Below, piece by piece: positions 9,830 to 61,824 of a DNA stretch of 64,000 nt (positions within the stretch are counted from its first letter, which is position 1; every line of letters starts with the position of its first letter). The position numbers and the translations under genes were made by a program. The DNA is from a virus. Taxonomy: Duplodnaviria; Heunggongvirae; Uroviricota; Caudoviricetes. Below the pieces are notes generated by a model that searched no databases, had not been told where the DNA came from, and was given only the letters and a program-made list of their open reading frames with translations. Location: the IMG/VR virus record IMGVR_UViG_2609460332_000008; one strand, 5' to 3'.

Positions 9830-11694
9830 TACCCTTGCTCCACGCTGGTGACGCCAGCCTGCGCACTGAGTCTGACGCCGGGTTGATCCACTCTGACACT
9901 TTTCACGCGGGCGTCACCTTCCACCACCACACGGATTTCCCCCTGCAATTGCTGCGGAAGGAAAGGATAATTCTGTGTGCCCTGCATACCTGCCCACGGT
10001 CGCGGGTCAGCAATGTTCTTGTCACCCAGCGAACTGAACCAGTCCGTTACCTTACGCCAGACGGACTCGAGCGCTTTCTGGTTGTCCTGACTCTGTTGCG
10101 CGAACTCGCGCTCCCGCGGGCTGGCGCTGGCATCACCGGCAACGGATTTAGTGAGACTGTCAACCTCACCCGGCAGGGCGTATTGTGTGGTCAGAAAATC
10201 GTAAAACTCCAGAGCACCGGCAATGATGCCAGCGCCTTTACCTGCCTTTCCTCCACGGTTACCCGGCCCCCGAGGATTGCGGGGATTGCGCGATGAATCT
10301 GGTGTATCCGGCAGACCGCCGGTATTACCATTCATCCCGCCACTGCCCATATTAACCACATAAACCGGCATCACACCGGAGCCGAAAACATCTGTAATGC
10401 CACCGGGTATTCCTTTGCCTTTCCCTTTGGGATTCATGATGTCGTGGAGGGTTTTACCTAACTGGTACGTTTTTCGGATGGCGATAATGCCGCCCACAGC
10501 AATCGCCATATATTTACCGACCTGCAACCAGTTCTGGACGGTGTTCTGGTCCACGCTGTTGATGGCATCAGCCAGGTCCTGAACGGGTTTTGCCAGTTGA
10601 TGGTGGGAGAATTTTTTCCAGCTGGTTTCCAGTGCCTGCATGGCAGACGTAAAATCCTGTGCAGCATACGCGGCATCTTTCATGATGCCTTTACCATCAC
10701 CGACGACTTTCATATAACGTTGCAGGTTTTCTGCACCTTTGCCTGACGTTACGCTGCTTAAAAGCATGACTGAATCCTGGTTAAAACCGGCTTCAATCAG
10801 CCTTTTATTTTGTTCTTCTGCGCCCCGGTTCCCTGATTTTCTGGCAATCTCCTGAAGCAATATCGGAAGCGATCGCATCCGGCCATCTTTCCCGTAAACA
10901 TCAATGCCATTTGTCCGCAATGTTTTTACAACCTTCGGAAGCTGTAAATCACGGATCAGATTTTCAACAGCGGTTGCGGCGGTATCACGGTTCCCTGTTG
11001 CATCAACGGCAGATTCAAGTGCAACCCCTACGTCCTTGACACCCTGCACACCACGTCCGCCCGCGGCGGAATACAGCGACATCGCACGGGTTGCTTTTTC
11101 TGCGATGTCTTTCAGTTCATAGGCACCTTCTTTTCCCAGCAGGTTCAGGGTATCCATTGCCTTTAAGGCATCGTTTTCATCCTTAATCCCGAACTTCGTA
11201 AACTGAGAAAACAGCGAGCCGATGGCTTCCCCTGAACTTCCGGAAGCGGCGATGGATGCCGCCATCATCTCCTTGTTTTTGAAACCAAAATCAATCTCAC
11301 CCGTCACGGTGCCGACTTTTTCCACAGCGCTTATCAGTTCACTGTCATCAACCTTAAATTTGATGGCGGCGTCCTGAATACCATTCAGCATCTGTGCCAT
11401 TTCGTCGCGCGTCTTTTCTGCAGCAATACCAATGCGGGTCATCCGGCGATCCACCTGCGCAAACTCACGCATCATGGCGCTACCGGCAAACCCGGCAATC
11501 ATTGCCGTGTAGCGGTTACCCAGCACATCAAGGCCACGTGTGGCAGATTCCGTTGTGGCTTTGACCAGATTCATTGCCTTCTGATGATTACGCGCGAACT
11601 GCGACATATTTGCGCCGTACTGCCGGGCTTTGGCGGTCAGGTTCCCGGCAAGGTTGATCATGATTTCCGTGCTGAGACGGTTACCTGTTGCCAT
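9829..11694 (-). CDS. Tail tape measure protein
   Basis: 621-aa ORF with Gly-rich C-terminal region, downstream of tube and chaperone genes. Confidence 0.7.
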   Translation of the reverse strand: MATGNRLSTEIMINLAGNLTAKARQYGANMSQFARNHQKAMNLVKATTESATRGLDVLGNRYTAMIAGFAGSAMMREFAQVDRRMTRIGIAAEKTRDEMAQMLNGIQDAAIKFKVDDSELISAVEKVGTVTGEIDFGFKNKEMMAASIAASGSSGEAIGSLFSQFTKFGIKDENDALKAMDTLNLLGKEGAYELKDIAEKATRAMSLYSAAGGRGVQGVKDVGVALESAVDATGNRDTAATAVENLIRDLQLPKVVKTLRTNGIDVYGKDGRMRSLPILLQEIARKSGNRGAEEQNKRLIEAGFNQDSVMLLSSVTSGKGAENLQRYMKVVGDGKGIMKDAAYAAQDFTSAMQALETSWKKFSHHQLAKPVQDLADAINSVDQNTVQNWLQVGKYMAIAVGGIIAIRKTYQLGKTLHDIMNPKGKGKGIPGGITDVFGSGVMPVYVVNMGSGGMNGNTGGLPDTPDSSRNPRNPRGPGNRGGKAGKGAGIIAGALEFYDFLTTQYALPGEVDSLTKSVAGDASASPREREFAQQSQDNQKALESVWRKVTDWFSSLGDKNIADPRPWAGMQGTQNYPFLPQQLQGEIRVVVEGDARVKSVRVDQPGVRLSAQAGVTSVEQG

Positions 11695-11890
11695 GCTGTT
11701 TCTCCAGTTGCTTTATCAGGCGGAACAGCTGCCGCAGGGGCAGCTGTTCCAGGTACTGAATGCTGAATCGCGAAGACAGGTTAACCAGCAGGTTCATCAG
11801 TGCCGCCGCCAGCGGCATCAGTTCGCCCCCGCGTTGCCACCTCCTCAAGCATTTCATCCAGCGCGGCGGCTTTCGTGCTGATAAGCTCAA
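11681..11890 (-). CDS. Candidate frameshift extension of the tail assembly chaperone (alternate-frame ORF overlapping chaperone 3' end and the tape measure start)
   Basis: ORF in another register overlaps 11781..11890 and runs to the tape measure start; conserved chaperone frameshift position in tailed phages; no slippery site identified. Confidence 0.3.
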   Translation of the reverse strand: MSLSARKPPRWMKCLRRWQRGGELMPLAAALMNLLVNLSSRFSIQYLEQLPLRQLFRLIKQLEKQHGNR

Positions 11891-12176
11891 GGTCTGCCGG
11901 ATGGAGCATTCGCAGCTGTTTCATGTCCAGCGGGCCGGGAATGCTGCCGATGGCCGCAACCTGACGGCGCATCATCTCCAGCCCCATCAGCACTTCAGAG
12001 CAGTAGGCCACCGCCTTTCCATTCCCGCCCATGACGACGCGTTCTGCGGCCAGTTGTGCATCAATCACATCACTGGCGGTCAGTTCGCGCAGCTTCACGG
12101 TTTTATGCAGGGTTTCATCTGCCGTGCCTTTGCCGGTCAGAAGCCCGTGTTTCAGTTCAAATTCCATTTCAGCCAT
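11781..12176 (-). CDS. Tail assembly chaperone
   Basis: 131-aa acidic ORF between the tail tube and tape measure genes. Confidence 0.55.
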   Translation of the reverse strand: MAEMEFELKHGLLTGKGTADETLHKTVKLRELTASDVIDAQLAAERVVMGGNGKAVAYCSEVLMGLEMMRRQVAAIGSIPGPLDMKQLRMLHPADLELISTKAAALDEMLEEVATRGRTDAAGGGTDEPAG

Positions 12177-12177
12177 G

Positions 12178-12534
12178 TCACACCTTCACGCATTTTTCAC
12201 CGATAAAGTTCGCACTGATGGTGCCGGAATCCTCGTCCAGCTCCGCCGGGTTATCCGTGGCGGACCCCGTCATCATGTAGTTCAGGCCGTTGTCGCCGTA
12301 GAACATCACCGTGACGTCTTCCCAGCTGCTGATTTCAATCACGTCCATATCCGCTGCCGCCGCAATGGTCACCTTGATGGACGGCGAGGCCATCTTGCTG
12401 GAGATACCCCAGACCTTGCCGCCGCCCATATGCTGGGTGCGACTGAAGCCGCCCGGATTCAGCGTGGATTTCCCCTCGGTTTTAATTTCGCGGCCATTCA
12501 CGCGAATGGTCGCCATGCCAAGAATTTTTGCCAT
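12178..12534 (-). CDS. Tail tube protein (Mu M-like)
   Basis: 118-aa ORF directly downstream of the sheath gene. Confidence 0.65.
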   Translation of the reverse strand: MAKILGMATIRVNGREIKTEGKSTLNPGGFSRTQHMGGGKVWGISSKMASPSIKVTIAAAADMDVIEISSWEDVTVMFYGDNGLNYMMTGSATDNPAELDEDSGTISANFIGEKCVKV

Positions 12535-12543
12535 GCGGTCCCC

Positions 12544-14019
12544 TTAAAGTTTGAACTGAATCAGGCCTGCCAGCACACGCAGCTGGTTCACCAGATTCGG
12601 GTGGCAGATAAAGTTCAGGCGGTTTTTATCGCTGCTGTCGCGTGTCACCTGAAGCGTGTCCCTGTAATCGCTGAAGTTCTCCACAAGGCCTGCCGGGAGA
12701 AGTTCGGTCTGGCAGATATCCAGCAGCTCTGCGGTGCACAGCTTCGGCGTCATCACCGGCTGACCGGCATCCAGTGAGTCCAGCACGTCATCATCCGCCA
12801 GCTTGTGGCGCGGATAACGGTTCGTGAAACGGTTTTTGATGATGTAGCGGATACGGCCCAGCGTGGCGGGTGACTGCACATCCAGGTACGACACATCCGC
12901 ATCACCGTACTGATTAACCCGGTACATGGTGATTTCACGCTCGATGCAGACGTTATCCCCGGCGTCCACCATGTGCGTGGCAATGCCGTCATGCAGCAGC
13001 AGATTACGCTCCGGCATATCCCAGCGAACATTACGCGCAGGCGGCAGAATGCCGGTCAGAACCAGCGTCTGAAGCGGACGCGCCGGGTCAATGGCAAGGT
13101 GATACGCTGCCGTTGCGCCGTATGACGCGGCCCACATCCACGCCGGGTGCGGTGACAGGTTGGTGCCGATACAGCTAATCAGCCAGTCATTGCGGGTTTC
13201 ACCAAACGTGCCGGTTTCCCCGTGTGTGCCACGAAACGCCGTCCACAACTGCGCCTCCATCATTTTGAGCGGCCCCCAGCGATTCAGCAGTTCATCACGC
13301 AGGGTGTTCAGGCTTTTCGTGTCGGTAAACGGGGCGATGATATCGGTAAACCACTCCGGGCCGATGGCCGCAACGGCATCCGCCATTTCCGGTGTCCCGG
13401 TGCCGCCGGTAAACGCAGTAGCGGTCACCTTCACACCTGCCGGGAAGGCTTCACCGGTGTAGTAGTTCAGGCGAACGTCGGCACCGTTGCCGGTGACGCC
13501 GTGCCAGTTCACGGTCAGCTCCACGGTATCCGTGGCATCATCCTTCACCGCAGCGGCCACCTGCGTGGCAGGCTTTTTCGTCACCGCATCAGCAATGGCT
13601 TTTGCAATGTTTTCCTTCGTAGCCCCGGCGCTCACGCTCACCTGAACGGACACACCGTTAATCAGCAGTGCCACCGTTCCGGCTTCAGTCGCTGTACCCA
13701 GCACGGTCAGCGTGGCTTTTGCGGCAGCGCCTTCAGGCGCGGCAACCGGCATTGCCCAGGTTTCCGTGTACGTGTTGGCACGACGCAGCATTTTGAGCAT
13801 TTCAGCCAGCATCGACCCTTTGCCATAAAGCTGGTCTGCCTGGCTGTCACTGGTGATGCGGGTCAGTGACAGGGCGTCTGCGCTGCCGGACGATACCGCA
13901 TGGCCCATGACCAGAATTTTTCGGCTTTGCGCGGATGCACCCTCCAGCGCCTGTGAATTGTCGATATCGATCCAGACAAGCGGGACGCGGATATCATCAG
14001 GAATTGAACCCAGCGACAT
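12544..14019 (-). CDS. Contractile tail sheath protein (Mu L-like)
   Basis: 491-aa ORF, sheath-sized, followed by the tube gene. Confidence 0.7.
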   Translation of the reverse strand: MSLGSIPDDIRVPLVWIDIDNSQALEGASAQSRKILVMGHAVSSGSADALSLTRITSDSQADQLYGKGSMLAEMLKMLRRANTYTETWAMPVAAPEGAAAKATLTVLGTATEAGTVALLINGVSVQVSVSAGATKENIAKAIADAVTKKPATQVAAAVKDDATDTVELTVNWHGVTGNGADVRLNYYTGEAFPAGVKVTATAFTGGTGTPEMADAVAAIGPEWFTDIIAPFTDTKSLNTLRDELLNRWGPLKMMEAQLWTAFRGTHGETGTFGETRNDWLISCIGTNLSPHPAWMWAASYGATAAYHLAIDPARPLQTLVLTGILPPARNVRWDMPERNLLLHDGIATHMVDAGDNVCIEREITMYRVNQYGDADVSYLDVQSPATLGRIRYIIKNRFTNRYPRHKLADDDVLDSLDAGQPVMTPKLCTAELLDICQTELLPAGLVENFSDYRDTLQVTRDSSDKNRLNFICHPNLVNQLRVLAGLIQFKL

Positions 14020-14219
14020 TATTTTTTCCCTCTGGTTTTGTTGCTATTTTTCGGAAGCGCGGTTATTTCCACATCTCCTTCGGCTTCACGGCGCAGCCAG
14101 TAAGCGCAGACGTCGAGACGTTCCCCTTCCGGGGATAAATGCGCGCCATCCGGTTTACGGACACGGACGTTTTCCCGCGCTGGCTTAATCAGTTTCTGTT
14201 CCATCGTCACCCCGTACAT
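14019..14219 (-). CDS. Small hypothetical virion-module protein (66 aa)
   Basis: ORF start overlaps upstream gene end; conserved position upstream of the sheath gene. Confidence 0.4.
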   Translation of the reverse strand: MYGVTMEQKLIKPARENVRVRKPDGAHLSPEGERLDVCAYWLRREAEGDVEITALPKNSNKTRGKK

Positions 14220-14796
14220 GGATCACGTCGTTAATCTCAGTATGTTCACCGCTACGCAGCGTTGCCCCGAGGCGCAGGAAGTCCGGGAGCGCGGCGAGAT
14301 CAATCTCTTCATCCAGCTGAAATTCCTGCTCCCACGTCACCGCCCACATGGTGACGCCCAGCCCGTCGAGGCTGGCGGAGTAAATGTTGTCTGCCCGCAC
14401 ATCAGCAGCCATGCGTTCAGCCCCCATGCCCCCGGTGGCATCCGACGACAACAGGCGTTTGATCACCTTCCCGGCCAGCACTTCACAGCGCACGTCGCGG
14501 GAGTACCCCCACGAATCCGTCGCCATGATGTAAGCCACCCAGGTAACCAGACCGGACAGCCCGCCGCGCGGGTTGATATCCCGGACACGCAGGGCAGCTA
14601 CCCGGATACAGCCGGTGCGACCGGACAGATAGCGTTTGACTTCCTCCGGGCTGTTGAACTGGCCGATGTGACGCTCCACCACGTCAGCCCGGTCAGGGGT
14701 TTTCCCCTGAAGTGCTGTTTTCAGCCAGGCCACAATGCGCTCTGCGGCCGCAACGGTGCTCCCCGGTGTGCGCAGTTCAGGGCGTTGTTCTGTCAT
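14185..14796 (-). CDS. Hypothetical head-tail / neck module protein (203 aa)
   Basis: ORF in the structural operon between head and tail genes. Confidence 0.45.
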   Translation of the reverse strand: MTEQRPELRTPGSTVAAAERIVAWLKTALQGKTPDRADVVERHIGQFNSPEEVKRYLSGRTGCIRVAALRVRDINPRGGLSGLVTWVAYIMATDSWGYSRDVRCEVLAGKVIKRLLSSDATGGMGAERMAADVRADNIYSASLDGLGVTMWAVTWEQEFQLDEEIDLAALPDFLRLGATLRSGEHTEINDVIHVRGDDGTETD

Positions 14797-15338
14797 GGCA
14801 GAACCTCCTTCCAGAAATGACTGATAACCTGTTGCAGCTCCTGCTGGTTGGCAGAAGACAGCCCCAGAAATTCACGTTGCGGAATGTTCATCATGCGGTT
14901 ATGTGCGCCGACGGTCTGCCAGACCGGATATTTCAGCGCCCGCCCGAAACACTGCGAGATAAGCCGTTTGTGGGCGCTGACCGGCACACTGCCGGAAAAG
15001 CCGTCATTCATGATGCGGGCATAATCCAGCGGTGAACCGATACGCACCACGCGGTTTTCCACGATGTACTGGATACTCTCCAGCAGATGGCCTTCACCAC
15101 GCAGCAGACTCTGGTTGCCGTGGCGGGTCTTTTTGTACCCGTCAGACCAGTCCGGCCAGCGTTCGCCACCCGGACTGGTTTTCTCATCAATGATGCGGCG
15201 GCGGGTCTGTGATTCCACCACCGCACCGATGCTCTCCAGCAGCTCTGCCTGCAATGAACCATCTGCCAGCTTTTCAACGGCACGGCGGATATCCTCCAGC
15301 CGCTGGTCACCGCTGACCTGTACAGAAATCCCCATCAC
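14793..15338 (-). CDS. Putative virion morphogenesis / tail completion protein (181 aa)
   Basis: ORF in the structural operon; overlapping start and stop with neighbours. Confidence 0.45.
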   Translation of the reverse strand: MMGISVQVSGDQRLEDIRRAVEKLADGSLQAELLESIGAVVESQTRRRIIDEKTSPGGERWPDWSDGYKKTRHGNQSLLRGEGHLLESIQYIVENRVVRIGSPLDYARIMNDGFSGSVPVSAHKRLISQCFGRALKYPVWQTVGAHNRMMNIPQREFLGLSSANQQELQQVISHFWKEVLP

Positions 15339-15772
15339 AGCACCCCTTTCAGGTTGTTACGGGTGAACAGCCGGGCATTGGCACCCACCACAATGATCTT
15401 CCCGTGGTCGGTTTCTGCCGGGGTGGCATACGTCGGCAGACCCAGGTCACGGGTGCCGTTCGCCATCTCACGCAGGGTTTTAATGGCGTCGTCGTAGCGT
15501 TTCTGGATCAGCTCCGTGATTTGATTGTCACGCTCTGACAACCAGTAAAACGCCAGCGATACCGCCACGCGTTGCAGCGGGCGCGGGATTTCCGTCACCC
15601 CCAGCGGCAGCTGGTAGCGGCGGGACAGAAACGAATCAATTTCCGCTTCGGCATCACTGATGGCCTGACGGATTTTGTCTTCATCCAGTTCGTTGGTTTC
15701 CCGGTTAATCGCCATGTTCCAGACAAGATTGCCGTCCGCGCGTAACAGGTCTTCCTGCGTGATATACCCCAT
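15335..15772 (-). CDS. Hypothetical head-tail connector-like protein (145 aa, Mu gp36-like)
   Basis: ORF downstream of the major head gene in Mu order. Confidence 0.45.
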   Translation of the reverse strand: MGYITQEDLLRADGNLVWNMAINRETNELDEDKIRQAISDAEAEIDSFLSRRYQLPLGVTEIPRPLQRVAVSLAFYWLSERDNQITELIQKRYDDAIKTLREMANGTRDLGLPTYATPAETDHGKIIVVGANARLFTRNNLKGVL

Positions 15773-16083
15773 CAGCCTTTCTCCGCTTCCCGGACAATCA
15801 GATTCGGCTCTGCCATCAGGCGGGTGGCAACCGCAGCGCTCACCGCCACATCCTCACCGGCATGTGACCAGAAACGACCACAGCGCCAGAACCCGTTTTC
15901 AGACACGGCCCGGACGTTCAGCCGGACAGGGGCGTCCCCCTGTACAACAGCCGGGTCTTCAGCCGGACGTGGTTCATTCGCCTGACCGTCAGCCACAATA
16001 ACGTCTGCCAGCGGTGCCGGGTTTTCCTGTGCTGCGCTGTTCTTTGCGGCTTTCGCGCCTTTGGTTCCTGCTTTTTCACTCAT
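15772..16083 (-). CDS. Hypothetical head protein (103 aa)
   Basis: ORF immediately downstream of the major capsid gene. Confidence 0.4.
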   Translation of the reverse strand: MSEKAGTKGAKAAKNSAAQENPAPLADVIVADGQANEPRPAEDPAVVQGDAPVRLNVRAVSENGFWRCGRFWSHAGEDVAVSAAVATRLMAEPNLIVREAEKG

Positions 16084-16154
16084 GACTCTGCCTTTTGAAA
16101 GGCAGTTAAAAGGGCATTCACAACGCCTTTTAACTGCAATTTACGGATGACGGG

Positions 16155-17057
16155 TTATGCCGGGGTGGTGATGAACGGACTGACCACGATGTCCACATCC
16201 TTGTACCAGATGTTGGAATCGCCGCCGTTTACCAGCATGGCGTCAATGATGCGCTTCGCAGCCGCGCGATTTTTCGGTCCCACCACAAGGGTGGTCGGGC
16301 GGATGCCCAGCGGTTCACCGTTGGTGGCCTTCATACCCAGCAGCAGATTACTGGCGCTCTCGTAGTTCTCCGCTGTCAGTGCCGCACGGGAACCGACGGC
16401 GGTTTGCCAGAAGCCGAATCCTGCATTACAGCGACCGTCCACCCCGTACAGGAACTCGTTATTCTTGAAGGTGTGCTCGCTGTTCAGATCGTCCAGGGCT
16501 TCAAACTTAAAGGCGCGTCGCGTCTGCCAGATGATGGGTTTCAGTACCTGAGAATCATCAATCAGAAACCACGGTTCCCCCTGGTCTGATGCCGGGGTGC
16601 CGACAACGTTGCTGTATGTGCCGTCGCCCAGCGGGTGGTCTTCATCAAAGAAGTTCTGACCGTCAAAACACAGGGTGTTAAACCCGGCACACAGCAGGGG
16701 GTAACACAGCTTGTCCGGGAACTCTGACGTCTGGCGGCCATAGCGTTCAGCGATAATGCTGTACTGACCAATCTGATCGTCTTCAATGTGTTCGCGTTTA
16801 ACGCGGATCGAACTTTCCCAGGTTTTGTTCGCAAGGGTGTAACCATAACCGTCCAGCGTTGCCATCTGACGGGCGCTGACCCATTCTTTAATCTCCGGTA
16901 AATCTTTCATCCAGCCGTAGGTATTGGAAGCGGACGAACTCGGGATTTCAGAGGCGATGCGCTGCCACTGTGGGGTAACACCACTCAGACCACGGGTATA
17001 AGCGGCGCTCAGGCAGGTGGTCAGCGCGTGAAGGACTTCGGAAGTGACTGCTCCCAT
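16155..17057 (-). CDS. Major capsid protein (Mu T-like)
   Basis: 300-aa ORF following the protease/scaffold gene; conserved Mu-like head order. Confidence 0.7.
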   Translation of the reverse strand: MGAVTSEVLHALTTCLSAAYTRGLSGVTPQWQRIASEIPSSSASNTYGWMKDLPEIKEWVSARQMATLDGYGYTLANKTWESSIRVKREHIEDDQIGQYSIIAERYGRQTSEFPDKLCYPLLCAGFNTLCFDGQNFFDEDHPLGDGTYSNVVGTPASDQGEPWFLIDDSQVLKPIIWQTRRAFKFEALDDLNSEHTFKNNEFLYGVDGRCNAGFGFWQTAVGSRAALTAENYESASNLLLGMKATNGEPLGIRPTTLVVGPKNRAAAKRIIDAMLVNGGDSNIWYKDVDIVVSPFITTPA

Positions 17058-18019
17058 CAGTTATTCTCCTGTTTCGGTTTAGCGGCGAGGAACTCTTCCC
17101 CGGTAATACCCATGCTGCGGCACATCGCCAGTTCGGCGTCGGTCAGTGTCTGCGCGGGTTTATCCTTGCCCTGGCTGGGCTTGTCGTTGTTCACCAGCGG
17201 CTGTGCACCTCTGGTGTATTCCGCAAACTGTTTGCGGCCTTCTTCCGTGCGGCAGGTGGCAAGGAACATGTCACGGTTTGCCGGGGCCACTTTTCCGGCT
17301 TCGATGGCCGCATCCACAAGCGCTTCTGCTTCCTTAGCTTCCAGTTGCTGAAGGCGTTGTTCTGCGGTTTCTGCACGGTTCAGTGCCAGATTGTGGGTTT
17401 CCACCGGCACAAACTTCGTCAGGTCAGGTGTCTGTGCGCGGTTCAGCGCCACCTGTTCGCTCTCCTGAAGTTGTTTAATGGCGGCCACGGTATCGTCCAC
17501 CGTGGCGGATTCAGCCAGCCCAAGCAGGCCGGTGATTTGCACAGGTACTGTCATCGGGTTTTTCTCCGTATTCAGTGCAGGAAAATCCAGGTTAGGTTTG
17601 TTGGTCAGCCCGACGCTGGACAGGCGCGTCACCACACCCTCCGCGTCATGGAAAAACGCCGGGCTGTAATAGCGATAGCGGCGCTCGCTCAGCATCCACC
17701 TGGCGGATTCACTCCAGACAACACGCCCTTCAATGATGCCGTTGTCCGTCACCCGCAGTTCTTCCACCCAGCCATACGCCGGGGCTTCATCACCGCGTTG
17801 CCCTTTAATTTCGGTGGCGTGTTCAATGTCCACCGGAATTTTGATGTCGGACGAGCGGGTGACCACCTCATGCGGATTGCGGTTAATCCACGTCCGGCCA
17901 TCGCGCCCGGTGAACTCACCCGCAGGGACGAGTTCAAGCCATTCCGGCAGTTGAGCGGGTGTCAGCTCAGGGATGGGTTCTGGCAGGGAAAAACACAGCG
18001 CCAGCAGTTCCGGTTGCAT
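17057..18019 (-). CDS. Prohead protease / scaffold protein (Mu I-like)
   Basis: 320-aa ORF with Ala/Glu-rich coiled-coil C-terminal half (scaffold-like), upstream of the major capsid gene. Confidence 0.65.
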   Translation of the reverse strand: MQPELLALCFSLPEPIPELTPAQLPEWLELVPAGEFTGRDGRTWINRNPHEVVTRSSDIKIPVDIEHATEIKGQRGDEAPAYGWVEELRVTDNGIIEGRVVWSESARWMLSERRYRYYSPAFFHDAEGVVTRLSSVGLTNKPNLDFPALNTEKNPMTVPVQITGLLGLAESATVDDTVAAIKQLQESEQVALNRAQTPDLTKFVPVETHNLALNRAETAEQRLQQLEAKEAEALVDAAIEAGKVAPANRDMFLATCRTEEGRKQFAEYTRGAQPLVNNDKPSQGKDKPAQTLTDAELAMCRSMGITGEEFLAAKPKQENN

Positions 18020-52526: not shown

Positions 52527-52949
52527 ATGTTCCTGAAAACCGAATCATTTGAATATAACGGCGTGACCGTCACGCTTTCTGAACTGTCAGCCCTGCAGCG
52601 TATTGAGCATCTTGCCCTGATGAAACGGCAGGCAGAACCGGCGGGATCCGACAGCAACCGGCAGGTTACTGTGGAAGACGTCATCAGAACCGGCGCGTTT
52701 CTGGTGGCGATGTCCCTGTGGCATAACCATCCGAAGAAGACGCAGATGCCGTCCATGAATGAAGCCGTTAAACAGATTGAGCAGGAAGTGCTTACCACCT
52801 GGCCCACAGAGGCAATTTCTCATGCTGAAAACGTGGTGTACCGGCTGTCCGGTATGTATGAGTTTGTGGTGAATAATGCCCCCGAACAGGCAGAGGACGC
52901 CGGGCCTGCAGAGCCTGTTTCTGCGGGAAAGTGTTCGACGGTGAGCTGA
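52527..52949 (+). CDS. G: Tail assembly chaperone G
   Basis: 140 aa MFLKTESFEYNGVTVTLSELSALQRIEHLALMKRQAEPAGSDSNRQ... Confidence 0.95.
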   Translation: MFLKTESFEYNGVTVTLSELSALQRIEHLALMKRQAEPAGSDSNRQVTVEDVIRTGAFLVAMSLWHNHPKKTQMPSMNEAVKQIEQEVLTTWPTEAISHAENVVYRLSGMYEFVVNNAPEQAEDAGPAEPVSAGKCSTVS

Positions 52950-53365
52950 GTTTTGCCCTGAAACTGGCGCGTGAGATGGGGCGACCCGACTGGCGTGCCA
53001 TGCTTGCCGGGATGTCATCCACGGAGTATGCCGACTGGCACCGCTTTTACAGTACCCATTATTTTCATGATGTTCTGCTGGATATGCACTTTTCCGGGCT
53101 GACGTACACCGTGCTCAGCCTGTTTTTCAGCGATCCGGATATGCATCCGCTGGATTTCAGTCTGCTGAACCGGCGCGAGGCTGACGAAGAGCCTGAAGAT
53201 GATGTGCTGATGCAGAAAGCGGCAGGGCTTGCCGGAGGTGTCCGCTTTGGCCCGGACGGGAATGAAGTTATCCCCGCTTCCCCGGATGTGGCGGACATGA
53301 CGGAGGATGACGTAATGCTGATGACAGTATCAGAAGGGATCGCAGGAGGAGTCCGGTATGGCTGA
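52527..53365 (+). CDS. T: Tail assembly chaperone G-T fusion product (made by -1 frameshift at 52925..52931)
   Basis: T frame open from 52931 to 53365 with no independent ribosome-binding context; lambda G-T architecture. Confidence 0.85.
52925..52931 (+). other. Programmed -1 ribosomal frameshift slippery heptamer G GGA AAG (G to G-T fusion)
   Basis: GGGAAAG in the G zero frame 18 nt before the G stop; the -1 frame continues as VFDGELSFALKLAREMGRPDW (T). Confidence 0.9.
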
Positions 53366-55919
53366 ACCGGTAGGCGATCTGGTCGTTGATTTGAGTCTGG
53401 ATGCGGCCAGATTTGACGAGCAGATGGCCAGAGTCAGGCGTCATTTTTCCGGTACGGAAAGTGATGCGAAAAAAACAGCGGCAGTCGTTGAACAGTCGCT
53501 GAGCCGACAGGCGCTGGCTGCACAGAAAGCGGGGATTTCCGTCGGGCAGTATAAAGCCGCCATGCGTATGCTGCCTGCACAGTTCACCGACGTGGCCACG
53601 CAGCTTGCAGGCGGGCAAAGTCCGTGGCTGATCCTGCTGCAACAGGGGGGGCAGGTGAAGGACTCCTTCGGCGGGATGATCCCCATGTTCAGGGGGCTTG
53701 CCGGTGCGATCACCCTGCCGATGGTGGGGGCCACCTCGCTGGCGGTGGCGACCGGTGCGCTGGCGTATGCCTGGTATCAGGGCAACTCAACCCTGTCCGA
53801 TTTCAACAAAACGCTGGTCCTTTCCGGCAATCAGGCGGGTCTGACGGCAGATCGTATGCTGGTCCTGTCCAGAGCCGGGCAGGCGGCAGGGCTGACGTTT
53901 AACCAGACCAGCGAGTCACTCAGCGCACTGGTTAAGGCGGGGGTAAGCGGTGAGGCTCAGATTGCGTCCATCAGCCAGAGTGTGGCGCGTTTCTCCTCTG
54001 CATCCGGCGTGGAGGTGGACAAGGTCGCTGAAGCCTTCGGGAAGCTGACCACAGACCCGACGTCGGGGCTGACGGCGATGGCACGCCAGTTCCATAACGT
54101 GACGGCGGAGCAGATTGCGTATGTTGCTCAGTTGCAGCGTTCCGGCGATGAAGCCGGGGCATTGCAGGCGGCGAACGAGGCCGCAACGAAAGGGTTTGAT
54201 GACCAGACCCGCCGCCTGAAAGAGAACATGGGCACGCTGGAGACCTGGGCAGACAGGACTGCGCGGGCATTCAAATCCATGTGGGATGCGGTGCTGGATA
54301 TTGGTCGTCCTGATACCGCGCAGGAGATGCTGATTAAGGCAGAGGCTGCGTTTAAGAAAGCAGACGACATCTGGAATCTGCGCAAGGATGATTATTTTGT
54401 TAACGATGAAGCGCGGGCGCGTTACTGGGATGATCGTGAAAAGGCCCGTCTTGCGCTTGAAGCCGCCCGAAAGAAGGCTGAACAGCAGAGTCAACAGGAC
54501 AAAAATGCGCAGCAGCAGAGCGATACCGAAGCGTCACGGCTGAAATATACCGAAGAGGCGCAGAAGGCTTACGAACGGCTGCAGACGCCGCTGGAGAAAT
54601 ATGCCGCCCGTCAGGAAGAACTGAATAAGGCCCTGAAAGACGGAAAAATCCTGCAGGCAGATTACAACACGCTGATGGCGGCAGCGAAAAAGGACTATGA
54701 AACGACACTGAAAAAGCCGAAGCAGTCCGGCGTGAAGGTGTCTGCGGGCGATCGTCAGGAAGACAGTGCTCATGCTGCCCTGCTGACGCTTCAGGCTGAA
54801 CTCCGGACGCTGGAGAAGCATGCCGGAGCAAATGAGAAAATCAGCCAGCAGCGCCGGGATTTGTGGAAGGCGGAGAGTCAGTTCGCGGTACTGGAGGAGG
54901 CGGCGCAACGTCGCCAGCTGTCTGTACAGGAGAAATCCCTGCTGGCGCATAAAGATGAGACGCTGGAGTACAAACGCCAGCTGGCTGCACTTGGCGACAA
55001 GGTTACGTATCAGGAGCGCCTGAACGCGCTGGCGCAGCAGGCGGATAAATTCGCACAGCAGCAACGGGCAAAACGGGCCGCCATTGATGCGAAAAGCCGG
55101 GGGCTGACTGACCGGCAGGCAGAACGGGAAGCCACGGAACAGCGCCTGAAGGAACAGTATGGCGATAATCCGCTGGCGCTGAATAACGTCATGTCAGAGC
55201 AGAAAAAGACCTGGGCGGCTGAAGACCAGCTTCGCGGGAACTGGATGGCAGGCCTGAAGTCCGGCTGGAGTGAGTGGGAAGAGAGCGCCACGGACAGTAT
55301 GTCGCAGGTAAAAAGTGCAGCCACGCAGACCTTTGATGGTATTGCACAGAATATGGCGGCGATGCTGACCGGCAGTGAGCAGAACTGGCGCAGCTTCACC
55401 CGTTCCGTGCTGTCCATGATGACAGAAATTCTGCTTAAGCAGGCAATGGTGGGGATTGTCGGGAGTATCGGCAGCGCCATTGGCGGGGCTGTTGGTGGCG
55501 GCGCATCCGCGTCAGGCGGTACAGCCATTCAGGCCGCTGCGGCGAAATTCCATTTTGCAACCGGAGGATTTACGGGAACCGGCGGCAAATATGAGCCAGC
55601 GGGGATTGTTCACCGTGGTGAGTTTGTCTTCACGAAGGAGGCAACCAGCCGGATTGGCGTGGGGAATCTTTACCGGCTGATGCGCGGCTATGCCACCGGC
55701 GGTTATGTCGGTACACCGGGCAGCATGGCAGACAGCCGGTCGCAGGCGTCCGGGACGTTTGAGCAGAATAACCATGTGGTGATTAACAACGACGGCACGA
55801 ACGGGCAGATAGGTCCGGCTGCTCTGAAGGCGGTGTATGACATGGCCCGCAAGGGTGCCCGTGATGAAATTCAGACACAGATGCGTGATGGTGGCCTGTT
55901 CTCCGGAGGTGGACGATGA
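53358..55919 (+). CDS. H: Tail tape measure protein H
   Basis: 853 aa, same length as lambda gpH; MAEPVGDLVVDLSLDAARFDEQMARVRRHFSGTESDAKK... Confidence 0.95.
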   Translation: MAEPVGDLVVDLSLDAARFDEQMARVRRHFSGTESDAKKTAAVVEQSLSRQALAAQKAGISVGQYKAAMRMLPAQFTDVATQLAGGQSPWLILLQQGGQVKDSFGGMIPMFRGLAGAITLPMVGATSLAVATGALAYAWYQGNSTLSDFNKTLVLSGNQAGLTADRMLVLSRAGQAAGLTFNQTSESLSALVKAGVSGEAQIASISQSVARFSSASGVEVDKVAEAFGKLTTDPTSGLTAMARQFHNVTAEQIAYVAQLQRSGDEAGALQAANEAATKGFDDQTRRLKENMGTLETWADRTARAFKSMWDAVLDIGRPDTAQEMLIKAEAAFKKADDIWNLRKDDYFVNDEARARYWDDREKARLALEAARKKAEQQSQQDKNAQQQSDTEASRLKYTEEAQKAYERLQTPLEKYAARQEELNKALKDGKILQADYNTLMAAAKKDYETTLKKPKQSGVKVSAGDRQEDSAHAALLTLQAELRTLEKHAGANEKISQQRRDLWKAESQFAVLEEAAQRRQLSVQEKSLLAHKDETLEYKRQLAALGDKVTYQERLNALAQQADKFAQQQRAKRAAIDAKSRGLTDRQAEREATEQRLKEQYGDNPLALNNVMSEQKKTWAAEDQLRGNWMAGLKSGWSEWEESATDSMSQVKSAATQTFDGIAQNMAAMLTGSEQNWRSFTRSVLSMMTEILLKQAMVGIVGSIGSAIGGAVGGGASASGGTAIQAAAAKFHFATGGFTGTGGKYEPAGIVHRGEFVFTKEATSRIGVGNLYRLMRGYATGGYVGTPGSMADSRSQASGTFEQNNHVVINNDGTNGQIGPAALKAVYDMARKGARDEIQTQMRDGGLFSGGGR

Positions 55920-56245
55920 AGACCTTCCGCTGGAAAGTGAAACCCGGTATGGATGTGGCTTCGGTCCCTTCTGTAAGAAAGGTGCGCTTTGGTGATGGCT
56001 ATTCTCAGCGAGCGCCTGCCGGGCTGAATGCCAACCTGAAAACGTACAGCGTGACGCTTTCTGTCCCCCGTGAGGAGGCCACGGTACTGGAGTCGTTTCT
56101 GGAAGAGCACGGGGGCTGGAAATCCTTTCTGTGGACGCCGCCTTATGAGTGGCAGCAGATAAAGGTGACCTGCGCAAAATGGTCGTCGCGGGTCAGTATG
56201 CTGCGTGTTGAGTTCAGCGCAGAGTTTGAACAGGTGGTGAACTGA
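55916..56245 (+). CDS. M: Tail tip protein M
   Basis: 109 aa MKTFRWKVKPGMDVASVPSVRKVRFGDGYSQRAPAGLNANLKTYSV... Confidence 0.95.
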   Translation: MKTFRWKVKPGMDVASVPSVRKVRFGDGYSQRAPAGLNANLKTYSVTLSVPREEATVLESFLEEHGGWKSFLWTPPYEWQQIKVTCAKWSSRVSMLRVEFSAEFEQVVN

Positions 56246-56942
56246 TGCAGGATATCCGGCAGGAAACACTGAATGAATGCACCCGTGCGGAGCAGTCGGC
56301 CAGCGTGGTGCTCTGGGAAATCGACCTGACAGAGGTCGGTGGAGAACGTTATTTTTTCTGTAATGAGCAGAACGAAAAAGGTGAGCCGGTCACCTGGCAG
56401 GGGCGACAGTATCAGCCGTATCCCATTCAGGGGAGCGGTTTTGAACTGAATGGCAAAGGCACCAGTACGCGCCCCACGCTGACGGTTTCTAACCTGTACG
56501 GTATGGTCACCGGGATGGCGGAAGATCTGCAGAGTCTGGTCGGCGGAACGGTGGTCCGGCGTAAGGTTTACGCCCGTTTTCTGGATGCGGTGAACTTCGT
56601 CAACGGAAACAGTTATGCCGATCCGGAGCAGGAGGTGATCAGCGCTGGCGCATTGAGCAGTGCAGCGAACTGAGCGCGGTGAGTGCCTCCTTTGTACTGT
56701 CCACGCCGACGGAAACGGATGGCGCTGTTTTTCCGGGACGTATCATGCTGGCCAACACCTGCACCTGGACCTATCGCGGTGACGAGTGCGGTTATAGCGG
56801 TCCGGCTGTCGCGGATGAATATGACCAGCCAACGTCCGATATCACGAAGGATAAATGCAGCAAATGCCTGAGCGGTTGTAAGTTCCGCAATAACGTCGGC
56901 AACTTTGGCGGCTTCCTTTCCATTAACAAACTTTCGCAGTAA
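56245..56942 (+). pseudogene. L: Tail tip protein L, disrupted by an apparent 1-bp deletion (frameshift near 56641)
   Basis: ORF 56245..56673 (142 aa) stops early; the remainder continues in another frame from GTG 56679 to 56942; the two parts together span the length of lambda L minus 1 bp. Confidence 0.7.
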
Positions 56943-56946
56943 TCCC

Positions 56947-57690
56947 ATGACACAGACAGAATCAGCGATTCTGGCGCACGCCCGGCGATGTGCGCCAGCG
57001 GAGTCGTGTGGCTTCGTGGTGAGAACGCCGAAGGGGGAAAGATATTTTCCCTGCGTGAATATCTCCGGTGAGCCGGAGGCGTATTTCCGGATGTCGCCGG
57101 AGGACTGGCTGCGGGCAGAGATGCAGGGTGAGATTGTGGCGCTGGTCCACAGCCACCCCGGTGGTCTGCCCTGGCTGAGTGAGGCTGACAGGCGGCTGCA
57201 GGTGCAGAGCGATTTGCCGTGGTGGCTGGTCTGCCGGGGTGAGATTCATAAATTCCGCTGTGTGCCGCATCTTACCGGGCGGTGCTTTGAGCACGGGGTG
57301 ACGGACTGTTACACGCTGTTCCGGGATGCTTATCATCTGGCGGGGATTGAGATGCCGGATTTTCATCGCGGGGATGACTGGTGGCGTCACGGTCAGAATC
57401 TCTATCTGGATAATCTGGAGGCCACAGGGCTGTATCAGGTGCCGTTGTCATCAGCACAACCGGGCGATGTGCTGCTGTGCTGTTTTGGTTCATCGGTGCC
57501 GAATCATGCCGCCATTTACTGTGGTGATGGCGAGCTGCTGCACCATATTCCTGAACAACTGAGCAAACGAGAGAGGTATACCGACAAATGGCAGCGACGC
57601 ACACACTCCCTCTGGCGTCACCGGGCATGGCGCGCATCTGCCTTTACGGGGATTTACAACGATTTGGCCGCCGCATCGACCTTCGTGTGA
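56947..57690 (+). CDS. K: Tail tip assembly protein K (MPN/JAB plus NlpC/P60-like); the canonical lambda annotation starts at the internal ATG 57091
   Basis: MTQTESAILAHARRCAPAESCGFVV...; HSHPGG (JAB-like) and VTDCYTLF / HAAIY (NlpC/P60-like Cys/His) motifs. Confidence 0.85.
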   Translation: MTQTESAILAHARRCAPAESCGFVVRTPKGERYFPCVNISGEPEAYFRMSPEDWLRAEMQGEIVALVHSHPGGLPWLSEADRRLQVQSDLPWWLVCRGEIHKFRCVPHLTGRCFEHGVTDCYTLFRDAYHLAGIEMPDFHRGDDWWRHGQNLYLDNLEATGLYQVPLSSAQPGDVLLCCFGSSVPNHAAIYCGDGELLHHIPEQLSKRERYTDKWQRRTHSLWRHRAWRASAFTGIYNDLAAASTFV

Positions 57691-58229
57691 AAACGGGGGC
57701 TGAAGCCATCCGGGCGCTGGCCACACAGCTCCCGGCGTTTCGTCAGAAACTGAGCGACGGCTGGTATCAGGTACGGATTGCCGGGCGTGATACAGGTGAA
57801 ACGGAATTATCAGCCCGTCTTAATGAACCGCTGGCAAATGGTGCTGTGATCCATATCGTGCCGCGTCTGGCAGGAGCCAAAAGTGGCGGTGTGTTTCAGG
57901 CTGTGCTGGGGGCGGCTGTTATGGCGGTTGCTATATGGATGCCGGGGGTAGGAATTATGGCGAGTAATCTGCTGTTTTCTCTCGGTGCCAGTATGACGCT
58001 TGGCGGTGTTGCACAGATGCTGGCCCCTAAACCCAGAACCCCCCGCACACAGACAACGGATAACGGCAAACAGAACACCTATTTTTCTTCACTGGATAAT
58101 ATGGTTGCCCAGGGCAATGTTCTGCCCGTTCTGTACGGTGAAATGCGCGTGGGATCACGTGTGGTATCTCAGGAGATCAGCACAGCAGATGAAGGTGATG
58201 GTGGTCAGGTTGTGGTGATTGGTCGCTGA
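57588..58229 (+). CDS. I: Tail tip assembly protein I (30-bp in-frame deletion relative to lambda)
   Basis: 213 aa MAATHTLPLASPGMARICLYGDLQRFGRRIDLRVKTGAEAIRALATQLPAF...; lambda I is 223 aa. Confidence 0.9.
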   Translation: MAATHTLPLASPGMARICLYGDLQRFGRRIDLRVKTGAEAIRALATQLPAFRQKLSDGWYQVRIAGRDTGETELSARLNEPLANGAVIHIVPRLAGAKSGGVFQAVLGAAVMAVAIWMPGVGIMASNLLFSLGASMTLGGVAQMLAPKPRTPRTQTTDNGKQNTYFSSLDNMVAQGNVLPVLYGEMRVGSRVVSQEISTADEGDGGQVVVIGR

Positions 58230-58289
58230 TGAAAAACGTTTTATGTGAAACCGCCTCCGGGCGGTTTTATCGTTTATGGAGCATGACGA

Positions 58290-61200
58290 ATGGGTAAAGG
58301 CAGCAGTAAGGGGCATACCCCGCGCGAAGCGAAGGACAACCTGAAGTCCACGCAGCTGCTGAGTGTGATCGATGCCATCAGCGAAGGGCCGGTTGAAGGT
58401 CCGGTGGATGGATTAAAAAGCGTGCTGCTGAACAGTACGCCGGTGCTGGACAGTGAGGGGAATACCAATATATCCGGCGTCACGGTGGTGTTCCGGGCCG
58501 GTGAGCAGGAGCAGTCACCGCCGGAGGGATTTGAATCCTCCGGCTCCGAGACGGTGCTGGGTACGGAAGTGAAATATGACACGCCGATCACCCGGACCAT
58601 CACGTCGGCAAACATCGACCGTCTGCGCTTTACCTTCGGTGTACAGGCACTGGTGGAAACCACCTCAAAGGGAGACAGGAATCCGTCGGAAGTTCGCCTG
58701 CTGGTTCAGATACAGCGTAACGGTGGCTGGGTGACGGAAAAAGACATCACCATTAAGGGCAAAACCACCTCGCAGTATCTGGCCTCGGTGGTGGTGGATA
58801 ACCTGCCGCCGCGCCCGTTTAATATCCGGATGCGCAGGATGACGCCGGACAGCACCACAGACCAGCTGCTGAACAAAACGCTCTGGTCGTCATACACCGA
58901 AATCATCGATGTGAAACAGTGCTACCCGAACACGGCACTGGTTGGCGTGCAGGTGGACTCGGAGCAGTTCGGCAGCCAGCAGGTGAGCCGTAATTATCAT
59001 CTTCGCGGGCGCATTCTGCAGGTGCCGTCGAACTATAACCCGCAGACGCGGCAATACAGCGGTATCTGGGACGGAACGTTAAAACCGGCATACAGCAACA
59101 ACATGGCCTGGTGTCTGTGGGATATGCTGACCCATCCGCGCTACGGCATGGGGAAACGTCTTGGTGCGGCGGATGTGGATAAATGGGCGCTGTATGTCAT
59201 CGGCCAGTACTGCGACCAGTCGGTGCCGGACGGCTTTGGCGGCACGGAGCCGCGCATTACCTGTAATGCGTACCTGACCACACAGCGCAAGGCGTGGGAT
59301 GTGCTCAGTGATTTCTGCTCGGCGATGCGCTGTATGCCGGTATGGAACGGGCAGACGCTGACGTTCGTGCAGGACCGACCATCAGATAAGGTGTGGACCT
59401 ATAACCGCAGTAATGTGGTGATGCCGGATGATGGCGCGCCGTTCCGCTACAGCTTCAGCGCCCTGAAGGACCGCCATAATGCCGTTGAGGTGAACTGGAT
59501 TGACCCGGATAACGGCTGGGAGACGGCGACAGAGCTCGTGGAGGATACGCAGGCCATTGCCCGTTACGGCCGTAACGTCACGAAGATGGATGCCTTTGGC
59601 TGTACCAGCCGGGGGCAGGCACACCGCGCCGGGCTGTGGCTGATTAAAACGGAGCTGCTGGAAACGCAGACCGTGGACTTCAGCGTGGGTGCTGAAGGGC
59701 TTCGCCATGTACCGGGGGATGTCATTGAAATCTGCGATGATGACTATGCCGGTATCAGCACCGGTGGTCGTGTGCTGGCGGTGAACAGCCAGACCCGGAC
59801 GCTGACGCTCGACCGTGAAATCACGCTGCCATCCTCCGGTACCACGCTGATAAGCCTGGTTGACGGAAGTGGCAATCCGGTCAGCGTGGAGGTTCAGTCC
59901 GTCACCGACGGCGTGAAGGTGAAAGTGAGCCGTGTTCCTGACGGTGTTGCTGAATACAGCGTATGGGGGCTGAAGCTGCCGACGCTGCGCCAGCGACTGT
60001 TCCGCTGCGTGAGTATCCGTGAAAACGACGACGGCACGTATGCCATCACCGCCGTGCAGCATGTGCCGGAAAAAGAGACCATCGTGGATAACGGGGCGCA
60101 CTTTGACGGCGAACAGAGTGGCACGGTGAATGGTGTCACGCCGCCCGCGGTGCAGCACCTGACCGCAGAAGTCACCGCAGACAGCGGGGAATATCAGGTG
60201 CTGGCGCGATGGGACACACCGAAGGTGGTGAAGGGGGTGAGCTTTATGCTTCGCCTGACCGTGGCAGCGGATGACGGCAGTGAGCGGCTGGTCAGCACGG
60301 CCAGGACGACGGAAACCACATACCGCTTCAGGCAACTGGCGCTGGGGAACTACAGGCTGACAGTCCGGGCGGTAAATGCGTGGGGGCAGCAGGGGGATCC
60401 GGCGTCGGTATCGTTCCGGATTGCCGCACCGGCAGCGCCATCGCGGATTGAGCTGACGCCGGGCTATTTTCAGATAACCGCAACGCCGCATCTTGCCGTT
60501 TATGATCCGACGGTACAGTTTGAGTTCTGGTTCTCGGAAAAGCGGATTGCGGATATCAGGCAGGTTGAAGCCAGCGCGCGTTATCTTGGTACGGCGCTGT
60601 ACTGGATAGCCGCCAGTATCAATATCAAACCGGGCCATGATTATTATTTTTACATTCGCAGTGTGAACACCGTTGGCAAATCGGCATTTGTGGAGGCTGT
60701 TGGCCAGCCGAGTGATGATGCATCCGGCTATCTGGATTTTTTCAAAGGAGAGATAGGGAAAACCCATCTGGCTCAGGAGTTGTGGACGCAGATTGATAAC
60801 GGTCAGCTTGCGCCTGACCTGGCTGAAATCAGGACGTCCATTACGGATGTCAGCAATGAAATCACGCAGACCGTCAATAAGAAACTGGAAGACCAGAGTG
60901 CAGCGATCCAGCAGATACAGAAGGTTCAGGTTGATACAAATAATAACCTGAACAGCATGTGGGCTGTGAAGCTGCAGCAGATGCAGGACGGACGCCTTTA
61001 TATCGCGGGTATTGGTGCCGGTATTGAGAATACCCCTGACGGTATGCAGAGTCAGGTGCTGCTGGCGGCGGACAGGATTGCGATGATTAATCCTGCGAAT
61101 GGCAATACAAAGCCGATGTTTGTTGGGCAGGGCGATCAGATATTCATGAACGAAGTGTTCCTGAAATATCTGACGGCTCCCACCATTACCAGCGGTGGCA

Positions 61201-61772
61201 ATCCCCCAACGTTTTCACTGACACCTGATGGTCGACTTTCTGCGAGAAATGCGGATATCAGCGGTAACGTGAATGCGAACTCCGGGACGCTCAATAATGT
61301 CACGATTAACCAGAACTGTCGGATTCTGGGAAAACTGTCAGCTAACCAGATTGAAGGTGATATTGTCAAAACGGTGGGAAAAGCCTTTCCGAGAAATGGC
61401 AGTTATGCCAGCGGTACAATAACGGTCACTGTGTACGATGACCAGGCTTTTGACCGTCAGATAGTCGTCCCCCCCGTTCTGTTTCGCGGTGGTAAGCATG
61501 AAAACTTCAACAGCAACAACCAACAGTCATACTGGTATTCAACCTGTAAGCTGCAGGTGCTGAAGAACGGACAGGAAATCTTTCAGCAACCCGCGACGGA
61601 TGTCAGCAGGGTATTTTCATCAGTCATTGATATGCCTGCCGGACACGGCCATGTCACCCTGACTTTCAATGTTTCTTCATATGGTGCAAATAACTGGACG
61701 CCAACGACCAGTATCAGCGACCTTCTTGTTGTCGTGATGAAGAAATCAACAGCCGGCATCAGTATCAGTTGA
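58290..61772 (+). CDS. J: Central tail fibre / host specificity protein J, with divergent longer C-terminus
   Basis: 1160 aa starting [42 protein letters not shown]...; lambda J is 1132 aa. Confidence 0.9.
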
Positions 61773-61824
61773 ATTTTAAAACCCAAATTCGGGCACCAGA
61801 AATGGTGCCTTTTTTATTTGTGGA

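Follow-up and report, generated by a model that had tools for sequence, protein, structure and literature searches.

Tail tip genes I and J of a lambdoid Escherichia coli prophage at icd: a very probable natural mosaic with LamB as the predicted receptor

The DNA analysed here, referred to below as the window, is a 64,000-nucleotide stretch of a Caudoviricetes record (IMGVR_UViG_2609460332_000008), and the genes and features described all lie on its + strand. Gene L (56245..56942), a tail tip gene included for context, has lost 1 bp near position 56642, which breaks its reading frame in two. It is followed by gene K (56947..57690), which encodes a 247-aa tail tip assembly protein that carries PF14464 (JAB) and PF00877 (NlpC/P60) domains and is 96.5% identical to lambda K. 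Gene I (57588..58229) encodes a 213-aa protein matching PF06805 (E=1.4e-24) and, over its full length, PDB 8iyk_I (E=3e-109). Gene J (58290..61772) encodes the central tail fibre, or tip attachment protein, of 1160 aa, so that positions 57588 and 61772 are exactly where I starts and J stops. Beyond J lie a terminator-like hairpin (61791..61810) and the side tail fibre gene stf (61831..63852; 673 aa; PF08400, PHROG 1419).

The J protein, assigned to PHROG 31, contains six Pfam domains that run from FNIII-A through Ig_GpJ_C (PF24801, PF13550, PF24421, PF24489, PF09327 and PF12421), all above cut-offs, and along the distal fibre it matches the solved gpJ structures 8xcj (E=1.6e-95), 8iyk_J (E=1.4e-94) and 9wca (E=2.3e-145). 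An ORF map and tblastn of lambda virion proteins place the gene after M-L-K-I and before stf. By domain series, structure matches and gene position, J is a central tail fibre protein of the lambda gpJ kind. The stretch up to about residue 820 (58290..60750), made up of the hub and two FNIII/Ig domains, is approximately 96-98% identical to both lambda and phage 21, with a pS of 0.116 and a dN/dS of 0.10. Past window position ~60750 the identity to lambda falls from ~97% to 20-78%, and the remainder of the gene (60750..61772) is a distal fibre module of the phage 21 type, consisting of an alpha-helical shaft, a central straight fibre and the receptor-binding domain, that has 97-100% sliding nucleotide identity to phage 21.

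A sequence-only reading of this DNA had described J as 28 residues longer than its lambda counterpart, with a different C-terminus, and both points were confirmed. The protein has 1160 aa vs 1132 aa in lambda, and the 28 additional residues come from three insertions (36+27+21 nt in the MAFFT indel list; 60783..60892), all of them in the alpha-helical shaft and none in the receptor-binding domain, with indels further downstream cancelling out. The same reading had raised the alternative of a C-terminus that aligns fully to lambda J and owes its length to a repeat-count error. The distal module does not align in this way, and a search for tandem repeats as the source of the J length found none. 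An error of repeat count or assembly was also excluded by the presence of the identical sequence in independent genomes and phage records.

The region of the receptor-binding domain (aa 1002-1160; 61293..61772), in which PF12421 spans aa 1038-1160, retains the wild-type residue I1025. The comparison of the J C-terminus with J proteins of known receptor, which the sequence-only reading had proposed as a check, placed this domain at 100% identity to LamB-using phage 21, 46.6% to lambda and 44-46% to 434 (tblastn), and at 82% to OmpC-using A8; among the matches listed at E<=1e-3 there were no FhuA-using lambdoids. Across the whole protein, 21 of the 1160 residues differ from the phage 21 J (CPT_21_21 of OL657228, likewise 1160 aa); only D853G, I912V and R986K fall in the distal module, all three before the receptor-binding domain, and aa 987-1160 are identical. 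Judged from this shared length, the nucleotide identity of at least 97% in the distal module, the identical receptor-binding domain and the conserved I1025, J carries the phage 21 allele beyond approximately residue 820. Published data on phage 21 identify LamB, the receptor of lambda, as its native receptor. Identity to phage 21 predicts LamB as the receptor of this prophage too, and the virion tip would bind it through the phage 21-type domain exactly as phage 21 does. The differences from lambda do not imply a receptor other than lambda's.

The closest solved structure, A8 (PDB 9wca), is a member of the same Ig-like gpJ C-terminal family as the receptor-binding domain and, in the last 159 aa, shares 82% identity with it. 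A8 is a gpJ chimera that uses OmpC and delivers DNA into lamB deletion cells (Brodel et al., 2024; PMC11338833); we found no paper for the entries 9wca/9wcb, and the identity of A8 is taken from Brodel et al. Because a protein 82% identical to this domain is OmpC-using, specificity within the clade can shift with few changes, and the published phage 21 data show that the single substitution I1025T is sufficient for phage 21 to gain OmpC use. Both observations would be compatible with a domain that binds OmpC, alone or besides LamB, as A8 does. We nevertheless regard OmpC binding as distinctly improbable, since the domain in the window is entirely that of wild-type, LamB-dependent phage 21, I1025 included, and in the published work ancestral phage 21 failed to lyse lamB deletion cells until it was evolved.

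The second divergent segment lies in gene I, whose product is laid out as a ubiquitin-like N-terminal domain, a hydrophobic H1-H2 hairpin, a plug and C-terminal strands. The protein has 213 aa vs 223 aa in lambda, and the net difference is indeed the 30 bp that had been reported, but the reported in-frame deletion resolves into three indels (window 57927-57971; -27, +6 and -9 nt) that lie within a larger patch of substitutions. This replaced patch (approximately codons 66-140; 57783..58010) takes in the last part of the N-terminal domain together with H1 and an H1-H2 loop that is shortened, and is 39-66% identical to lambda and phage 21 alike, whereas lambda and phage 21 agree with one another at 99-100% here; pS within the patch is 0.77. 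A simple 30-bp deletion was ruled out in favour of allelic replacement by the identity patch, the indels, the lengths found across the family and the saturated pS. Most members of the family have the short form, and the family as a whole shows hardly any variation in its C-terminal 70 aa. Among 5426 complete E. coli genomes, 1447 match the allele over at least 80% of the query length. Nor is the allele tied to one form of J: PhiR47_2 and phage 21 combine a phage 21-type J with a lambda-type I.

A Kyte-Doolittle profile shows that the continuous hydrophobic stretch at aa 99-146 of gpI is kept, and only the loop between the helices is shorter, by 10 residues relative to lambda. Sequence comparison places this gpI among the Lambda_tail_I tail tip plug proteins, with two hydrophobic helices that are predicted to be transmembrane. 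Cryo-EM papers describe gpI as a plug inside the tail tip that carries a predicted membrane hairpin and makes no contact with the receptor. The present protein would act as in lambda, plugging the lumen and releasing its hydrophobic hairpin toward the outer membrane upon receptor binding, and the length of its H1-H2 loop may be weakly constrained. The description of I as a receptor-contacting protein therefore failed, given this internal position, and a short form that is common in the family likewise lends no support to selection for a new receptor specificity.

Between J and stf the spacer is only 58 bp long, and the hairpin stands where lambda has lom, as the equivalent of an annotated terminator in phage 21. 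A tblastn search of the whole 64-kb window for lambda Lom gave a best E of 2.2, in agreement with the earlier statement that lom is absent between J and stf. That reading had also placed the loss of lom among receptor-contacting changes, which does not follow. Lom is an outer-membrane protein expressed from the prophage, a moron and not a virion protein, and phage 21 likewise has no lom at this position, with the order J-terminator-stf. The N-terminal ~330 aa of Stf are of the phage 21 type and nearly identical to those of phage 21. Another allele, only distantly related to that of phage 21, makes up the C-terminal ~340 aa, a half for which we found no solved structure. Since the Stf C-terminus is unlike that of phage 21, overall host range may differ from both lambda and phage 21.

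When the 19-kb virion module is compared with lambda in 200-bp sliding segments, nucleotide identity drops below 92% in just two places, the central part of I and the 3' end of J, and the other lambda virion proteins align without gaps at 94-100% amino acid identity. The claim that the rest of the virion module is near-identical to lambda is thus borne out, with one exception that it missed, the split gene L. By tblastn, lambda L matches the window in two separate frames (aa 1-133 and aa 134-232), and when the window is aligned to lambda, phage 21, PhiR47_2 and E. coli 4/1-1, it alone reads CAGCGCT at the site CAGCCGCT. The deletion was carried by none of 2641 matching E. coli records. The frameshift is private to this genome, and hence either recent or a sequencing error; with L frameshifted, the prophage in the window may be unable to form any virions.

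Alignments along the window reveal how these segments are joined. Lambda 1-18002 corresponds to window 42818-60786 at 97% identity, and phage 21 8025-20243 to window 50653-62840 at 95%. The head genes are lambda-type, at ~97% nucleotide identity to lambda and ~66% to phage 21, while the tail genes from Z to about codon 820 of J form a block common to both phages. From about codon 820 onward the order is that of phage 21: the distal J module, no lom, a terminator and the phage 21-type stf N-terminus. Compared with lambda (NC_001416), the prophage shares the gene order, the conserved head and tail proteins, the N- and C-terminal parts of gpI, J hub and FNIII domains that are ~98% identical, and LamB as the predicted receptor; it differs in the distal J module, with its longer shaft and 46.6%-identical receptor-binding domain, in the shorter H1-H2 loop of gpI and in lacking lom. 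Compared with phage 21, it differs in the head genes, in the Stf C-terminus and in gene I, where phage 21 has the 223-aa lambda-type form.

Two other records match the window closely. PhiR47_2 (PV340567) matches window 56500-64000 at 99.2%, with a J that differs by 1 aa but a lambda-type I allele. The prophage of E. coli 4/1-1 (NZ_CP023844) matches window 48781-64000 at 99.993%, I, J and stf included, but its L is intact and it lacks the Mu-like insertion. The latter prophage lies between icd and a duplicated icd 3' fragment, and two small ORFs and sitABCD come after stf, as in phage 21; the prophage in the window sits at icd, like phage 21. Full-text searches of the literature for the four closest phage records (Lambda_ev087, 1H12, mEp460_4F5 and PhiR47_2) yielded nothing relevant, and a candidate Genome Research paper mentions none of the four. 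As a separate observation, one of the moron genes of the prophage in the window is disrupted by a Mu-like prophage, whose junction was found in none of the records of the complete-genome collection.

In both divergent patches, those of I and J, pS is 0.62-0.77 vs 0.04-0.12 in the flanks, and dN/dS within the patches is ~0.2. Saturated synonymous sites together with a dN/dS of ~0.2 therefore indicate recombination between anciently diverged alleles, not recent adaptive change. The sequence shows that whole modules were exchanged by homologous recombination at conserved flanks, and the middle of gene I was replaced separately by another common natural allele. The divergence from lambda consists of inherited allelic modules and not of adaptations that arose within the lineage. 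This is ordinary phage mosaicism with no new host-range adaptation; it is already documented that distal J modules are exchanged in mosaic fashion, that lom may be present or missing, and that prophages resembling phage 21 carry sitABCD at icd. We are highly confident that this lambdoid E. coli prophage at icd is a natural mosaic that inherited its modules, with LamB as the predicted receptor as in phage 21.

The sequence-only reading had instead explained the differences in I, J and lom as coordinated adaptive change, selected for a receptor specificity unlike lambda's. It was correct that divergence is limited to I and the J C-terminus, and that the latter is a known host-range determinant, a module in which this prophage differs from lambda. 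The selection for an altered receptor is unsupported: the receptor-binding domain is that of a LamB-using phage, gpI sits inside the tip away from the receptor, the I and J alleles occur independently in other phages, synonymous sites are saturated at low dN/dS, and the missing lom, a non-virion gene, is simply the phage 21 arrangement. Coordinated adaptation is already largely refuted and in our view very improbable. Decay of a defective prophage under relaxed constraint, to which the frameshift in L and the Mu-like prophage inside a moron gene might point, is an extremely improbable source of these differences, as the ORFs of I and J are intact and match those of strain 4/1-1 exactly, with no inactivating changes found relative to functional phages, J is one residue away from that of PhiR47_2, a phage record listing E. 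coli C as its host, dN/dS is well below 1, and the private L frameshift is recent or a sequencing error.

The exact alleles described here, as inherited modules, recur in E. coli genomes by the hundreds to thousands and carry small weight as a discovery. Their main value is practical and lies in the annotation of J and I alleles: the label phage 21-type fits this J, its predicted receptor is LamB, and a single known mutation (I1025T) separates it from OmpC use. Divergence of a receptor-binding domain to 47% identity need not mean another receptor, and where the length of gpI is concerned it is the lambda reference that is the unusual one.

Several natural alleles of the gpI H1-H2 segment exist, with loops that differ by 10-14 residues between nearly invariant flanks, and this variation is independent of the J allele. 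It is conceivable, although we consider it unlikely, that the hairpin is a separately exchangeable cassette forming a second, receptor-independent layer of host-range determination; if so, hairpin variants might tune tip opening or insertion into the outer membranes of different hosts. The simpler reading of this variation is weak constraint on a segment that needs only to be hydrophobic.

Window 42818-60786 aligned to lambda (NC_001416) 1-18002 at 97.0% identity, indicating a lambda-like virion module that begins at cos, with head genes of the lambda type (about 66% identical to those of phage 21, OL657228). The head and tail proteins from Nu1 to K are 94-100% identical to lambda in amino acids and gap-free, with the exception of the tail tip plug gpI (81.6%, with 10 gaps), the central tail fibre gpJ (83.2%), and the tail tip protein L, which is split over two reading frames. 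When the 19-kb module was aligned in full, identity to lambda fell below 92% in 200-bp windows only at 57615-58278 in I and 60579-61772 at the end of J, so the sequence-only reading was numerically right that the module is near-identical to lambda elsewhere. In the ORF map, the region studied opens with the start codon of I at 57588 and closes with the J stop codon at 61772. Its differences from lambda in I, J and lom are real, and are known natural modules joined by recombination.

The J protein is 28 residues longer than that of lambda (1160 and 1132 amino acids) and has a different C-terminus, as had been claimed; past window ~60750 (residue ~820) identity to lambda drops to 20-78%. Three insertions at 60783-60892, within the alpha-helical shaft, account for the extra residues, and indels further downstream cancel; no tandem repeats were found in J, so the added length is not a repeat-count error. 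A Pfam map, with domain names taken from published nomenclature, places the start of the exchanged unit where the second FNIII/Ig domain meets the shaft, the unit comprising shaft, straight fibre, and receptor-binding domain. The distal J DNA is 97-100% identical to phage 21, the J protein of which is also 1160 amino acids long; the two proteins differ at 21 positions, only three of them (D853G, I912V, and R986K) in the C-terminal 340 residues and none from 987 to 1160.

For the region of the receptor-binding domain, the C-terminal 159 residues were compared with proteins of known or studied receptor, in a variant of the check that the sequence-only reading had proposed for the C-terminal 250 residues of J. 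The best match was phage 21 J (receptor LamB; 100%), followed by several long-tailed Stx phages (81-89%), the A8 domain (PDB 9wca, receptor OmpC; 82%), lambda J (LamB; 46.6%), and phage 434 J (OmpC; 44-46%). Phage 21 uses LamB natively, and a single change, I1025T, adds use of OmpC; the window keeps I1025. The A8 gpJ chimera (PDB 9wca/9wcb) delivers DNA via OmpC into lamB deletion cells (Brodel et al., 2024; PMC11338833), suggesting that porin specificity in this clade of receptor-binding domains can shift with few substitutions. The window domain itself is the wild-type LamB-dependent sequence, and from this identity we infer that the receptor would be LamB, the same as lambda's.

Selection for altered receptor specificity, which had been proposed to explain these differences, was not borne out. 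Nei-Gojobori counts against lambda gave pS values of 0.04 for I codons 1-65 (dN/dS not meaningful, as pN = 0) and 0.12 for J codons 1-815 (dN/dS 0.10), rising to 0.77 for I codons 66-140 (dN/dS not computable, dS being saturated), 0.62 for J codons 816-1001, and 0.70 for J codons 1002-1160 (dN/dS about 0.2 in both). Saturated silent sites with sharp boundaries indicate anciently diverged alleles swapped in by recombination, and do not point to recent adaptive substitutions in this lineage. The proposal is further opposed by a receptor-binding domain that is phage 21's and by gpI, which makes no receptor contact. [quoted passage not shown]

At 213 amino acids, compared with 223 in lambda, gpI does fall a net 30 bp short in its hydrophobic Gly/Ala-rich segment, but the single in-frame deletion first described is three indels (-27, +6, and -9 nt) within a replaced patch (57783-58010) that is 39-66% identical to lambda. 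Across this patch lambda matches phage 21 at 99-100% and the window is unlike either, so it carries a third allele; lambda's form is common to phages 21 and 434. Of 5426 complete E. coli genomes, 1447 match the patch over at least 80% of a 301-bp query, and protein clusters with the window's form have thousands of member sequences. When 13 diverse gpI proteins were aligned, a variable segment stood between an N-terminal domain and a C-terminal stretch of ~85 residues that hardly change; forms of 211-216 amino acids are the majority, and the loop is 10-14 residues longer in lambda and two sampled cluster representatives. The alignment thus indicates an extension in lambda relative to the family, and no deletion in the window, where gpI retains an uninterrupted hydrophobic stretch (residues 99-146). 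The I and J alleles are unlinked, PhiR47_2 (PV340567) and phage 21 having lambda-type I with window-type J, and strain 4/1-1 (NZ_CP023844) both window alleles. The 3' third of I (57978-58280) is 86-92% identical to lambda in nucleotides with an almost unchanged protein (pS 0.37, pN 0.012), so the recombined patch reaches beyond the visible amino acid differences and purifying selection on gpI is strong there.

As had been noted, lom is missing between J and the side tail fibre gene stf: no match was found in the whole window (best tblastn E-value 2.2), and the 58-bp spacer holds a terminator-like hairpin (61791-61810). In phage 21, J is likewise followed directly by a terminator and stf, and lom is missing there too. 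The prophage of E. coli 4/1-1, which matches window 48781-64000 at 99.993%, adjoins icd, also the phage 21 integration site, and downstream of stf has two small genes, sitABCD, and a duplicated icd fragment, an arrangement shared with phage 21. The N-terminal ~330 residues of Stf are near-identical to the phage 21 type, and the C-terminal ~340 (62820-63852) are a different allele, strongly divergent from phage 21 Stf, that had no match among solved structures; of the host-range elements here, this one alone lacks a characterised counterpart, and it is the least characterised in the prophage. It ends in a conserved motif common to phage 21, RFGGQT...RHLFGHIRNFR.W.KELNDRQ.KE. In 4/1-1, PhiR47_2, and phage 21, two small ORFs follow stf, with no annotated tail fibre assembly gene.

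Gene L (56245-56942) has a 1-bp deletion at ~56642 (CAGCCGCT to CAGCGCT) that causes a frameshift at codon ~133 and leaves an ORF of 142 amino acids. The gene is intact in lambda, phage 21, PhiR47_2, and 4/1-1, and none of the 2641 E. coli records with a match has the deletion. Either the mutation is private and inactivating, which would leave the prophage tail-defective, or the base was lost to a sequencing error.

Virulence-type morons of the prophage are iss, a bor-like serum-survival lipoprotein, and a large inverse autotransporter (window 40953-41246 and 31490-35755 equivalents, coordinates from the 4/1-1 annotation), to which the near-identical copy in 4/1-1 adds sitABCD, beyond the window end; the positions of lom and bor in lambda are thus filled differently. 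The 4.3-kb inverse-autotransporter (intimin/invasin-like) gene, uninterrupted in 4/1-1, is the target here of an inverted 33,569-bp Mu-like prophage (641-34209) lying within the lambdoid one. Its junction was in none of the searched complete E. coli genomes of the collection. The element has a mom gene at its left junction, Mu-type ends (TGAAGCGGCGCACGAAAAACGCGAAA... and ...CGTGAATCAATACA), and a flanking 5-bp target duplication, CCAGC, at 636-640 and 34210-34214.
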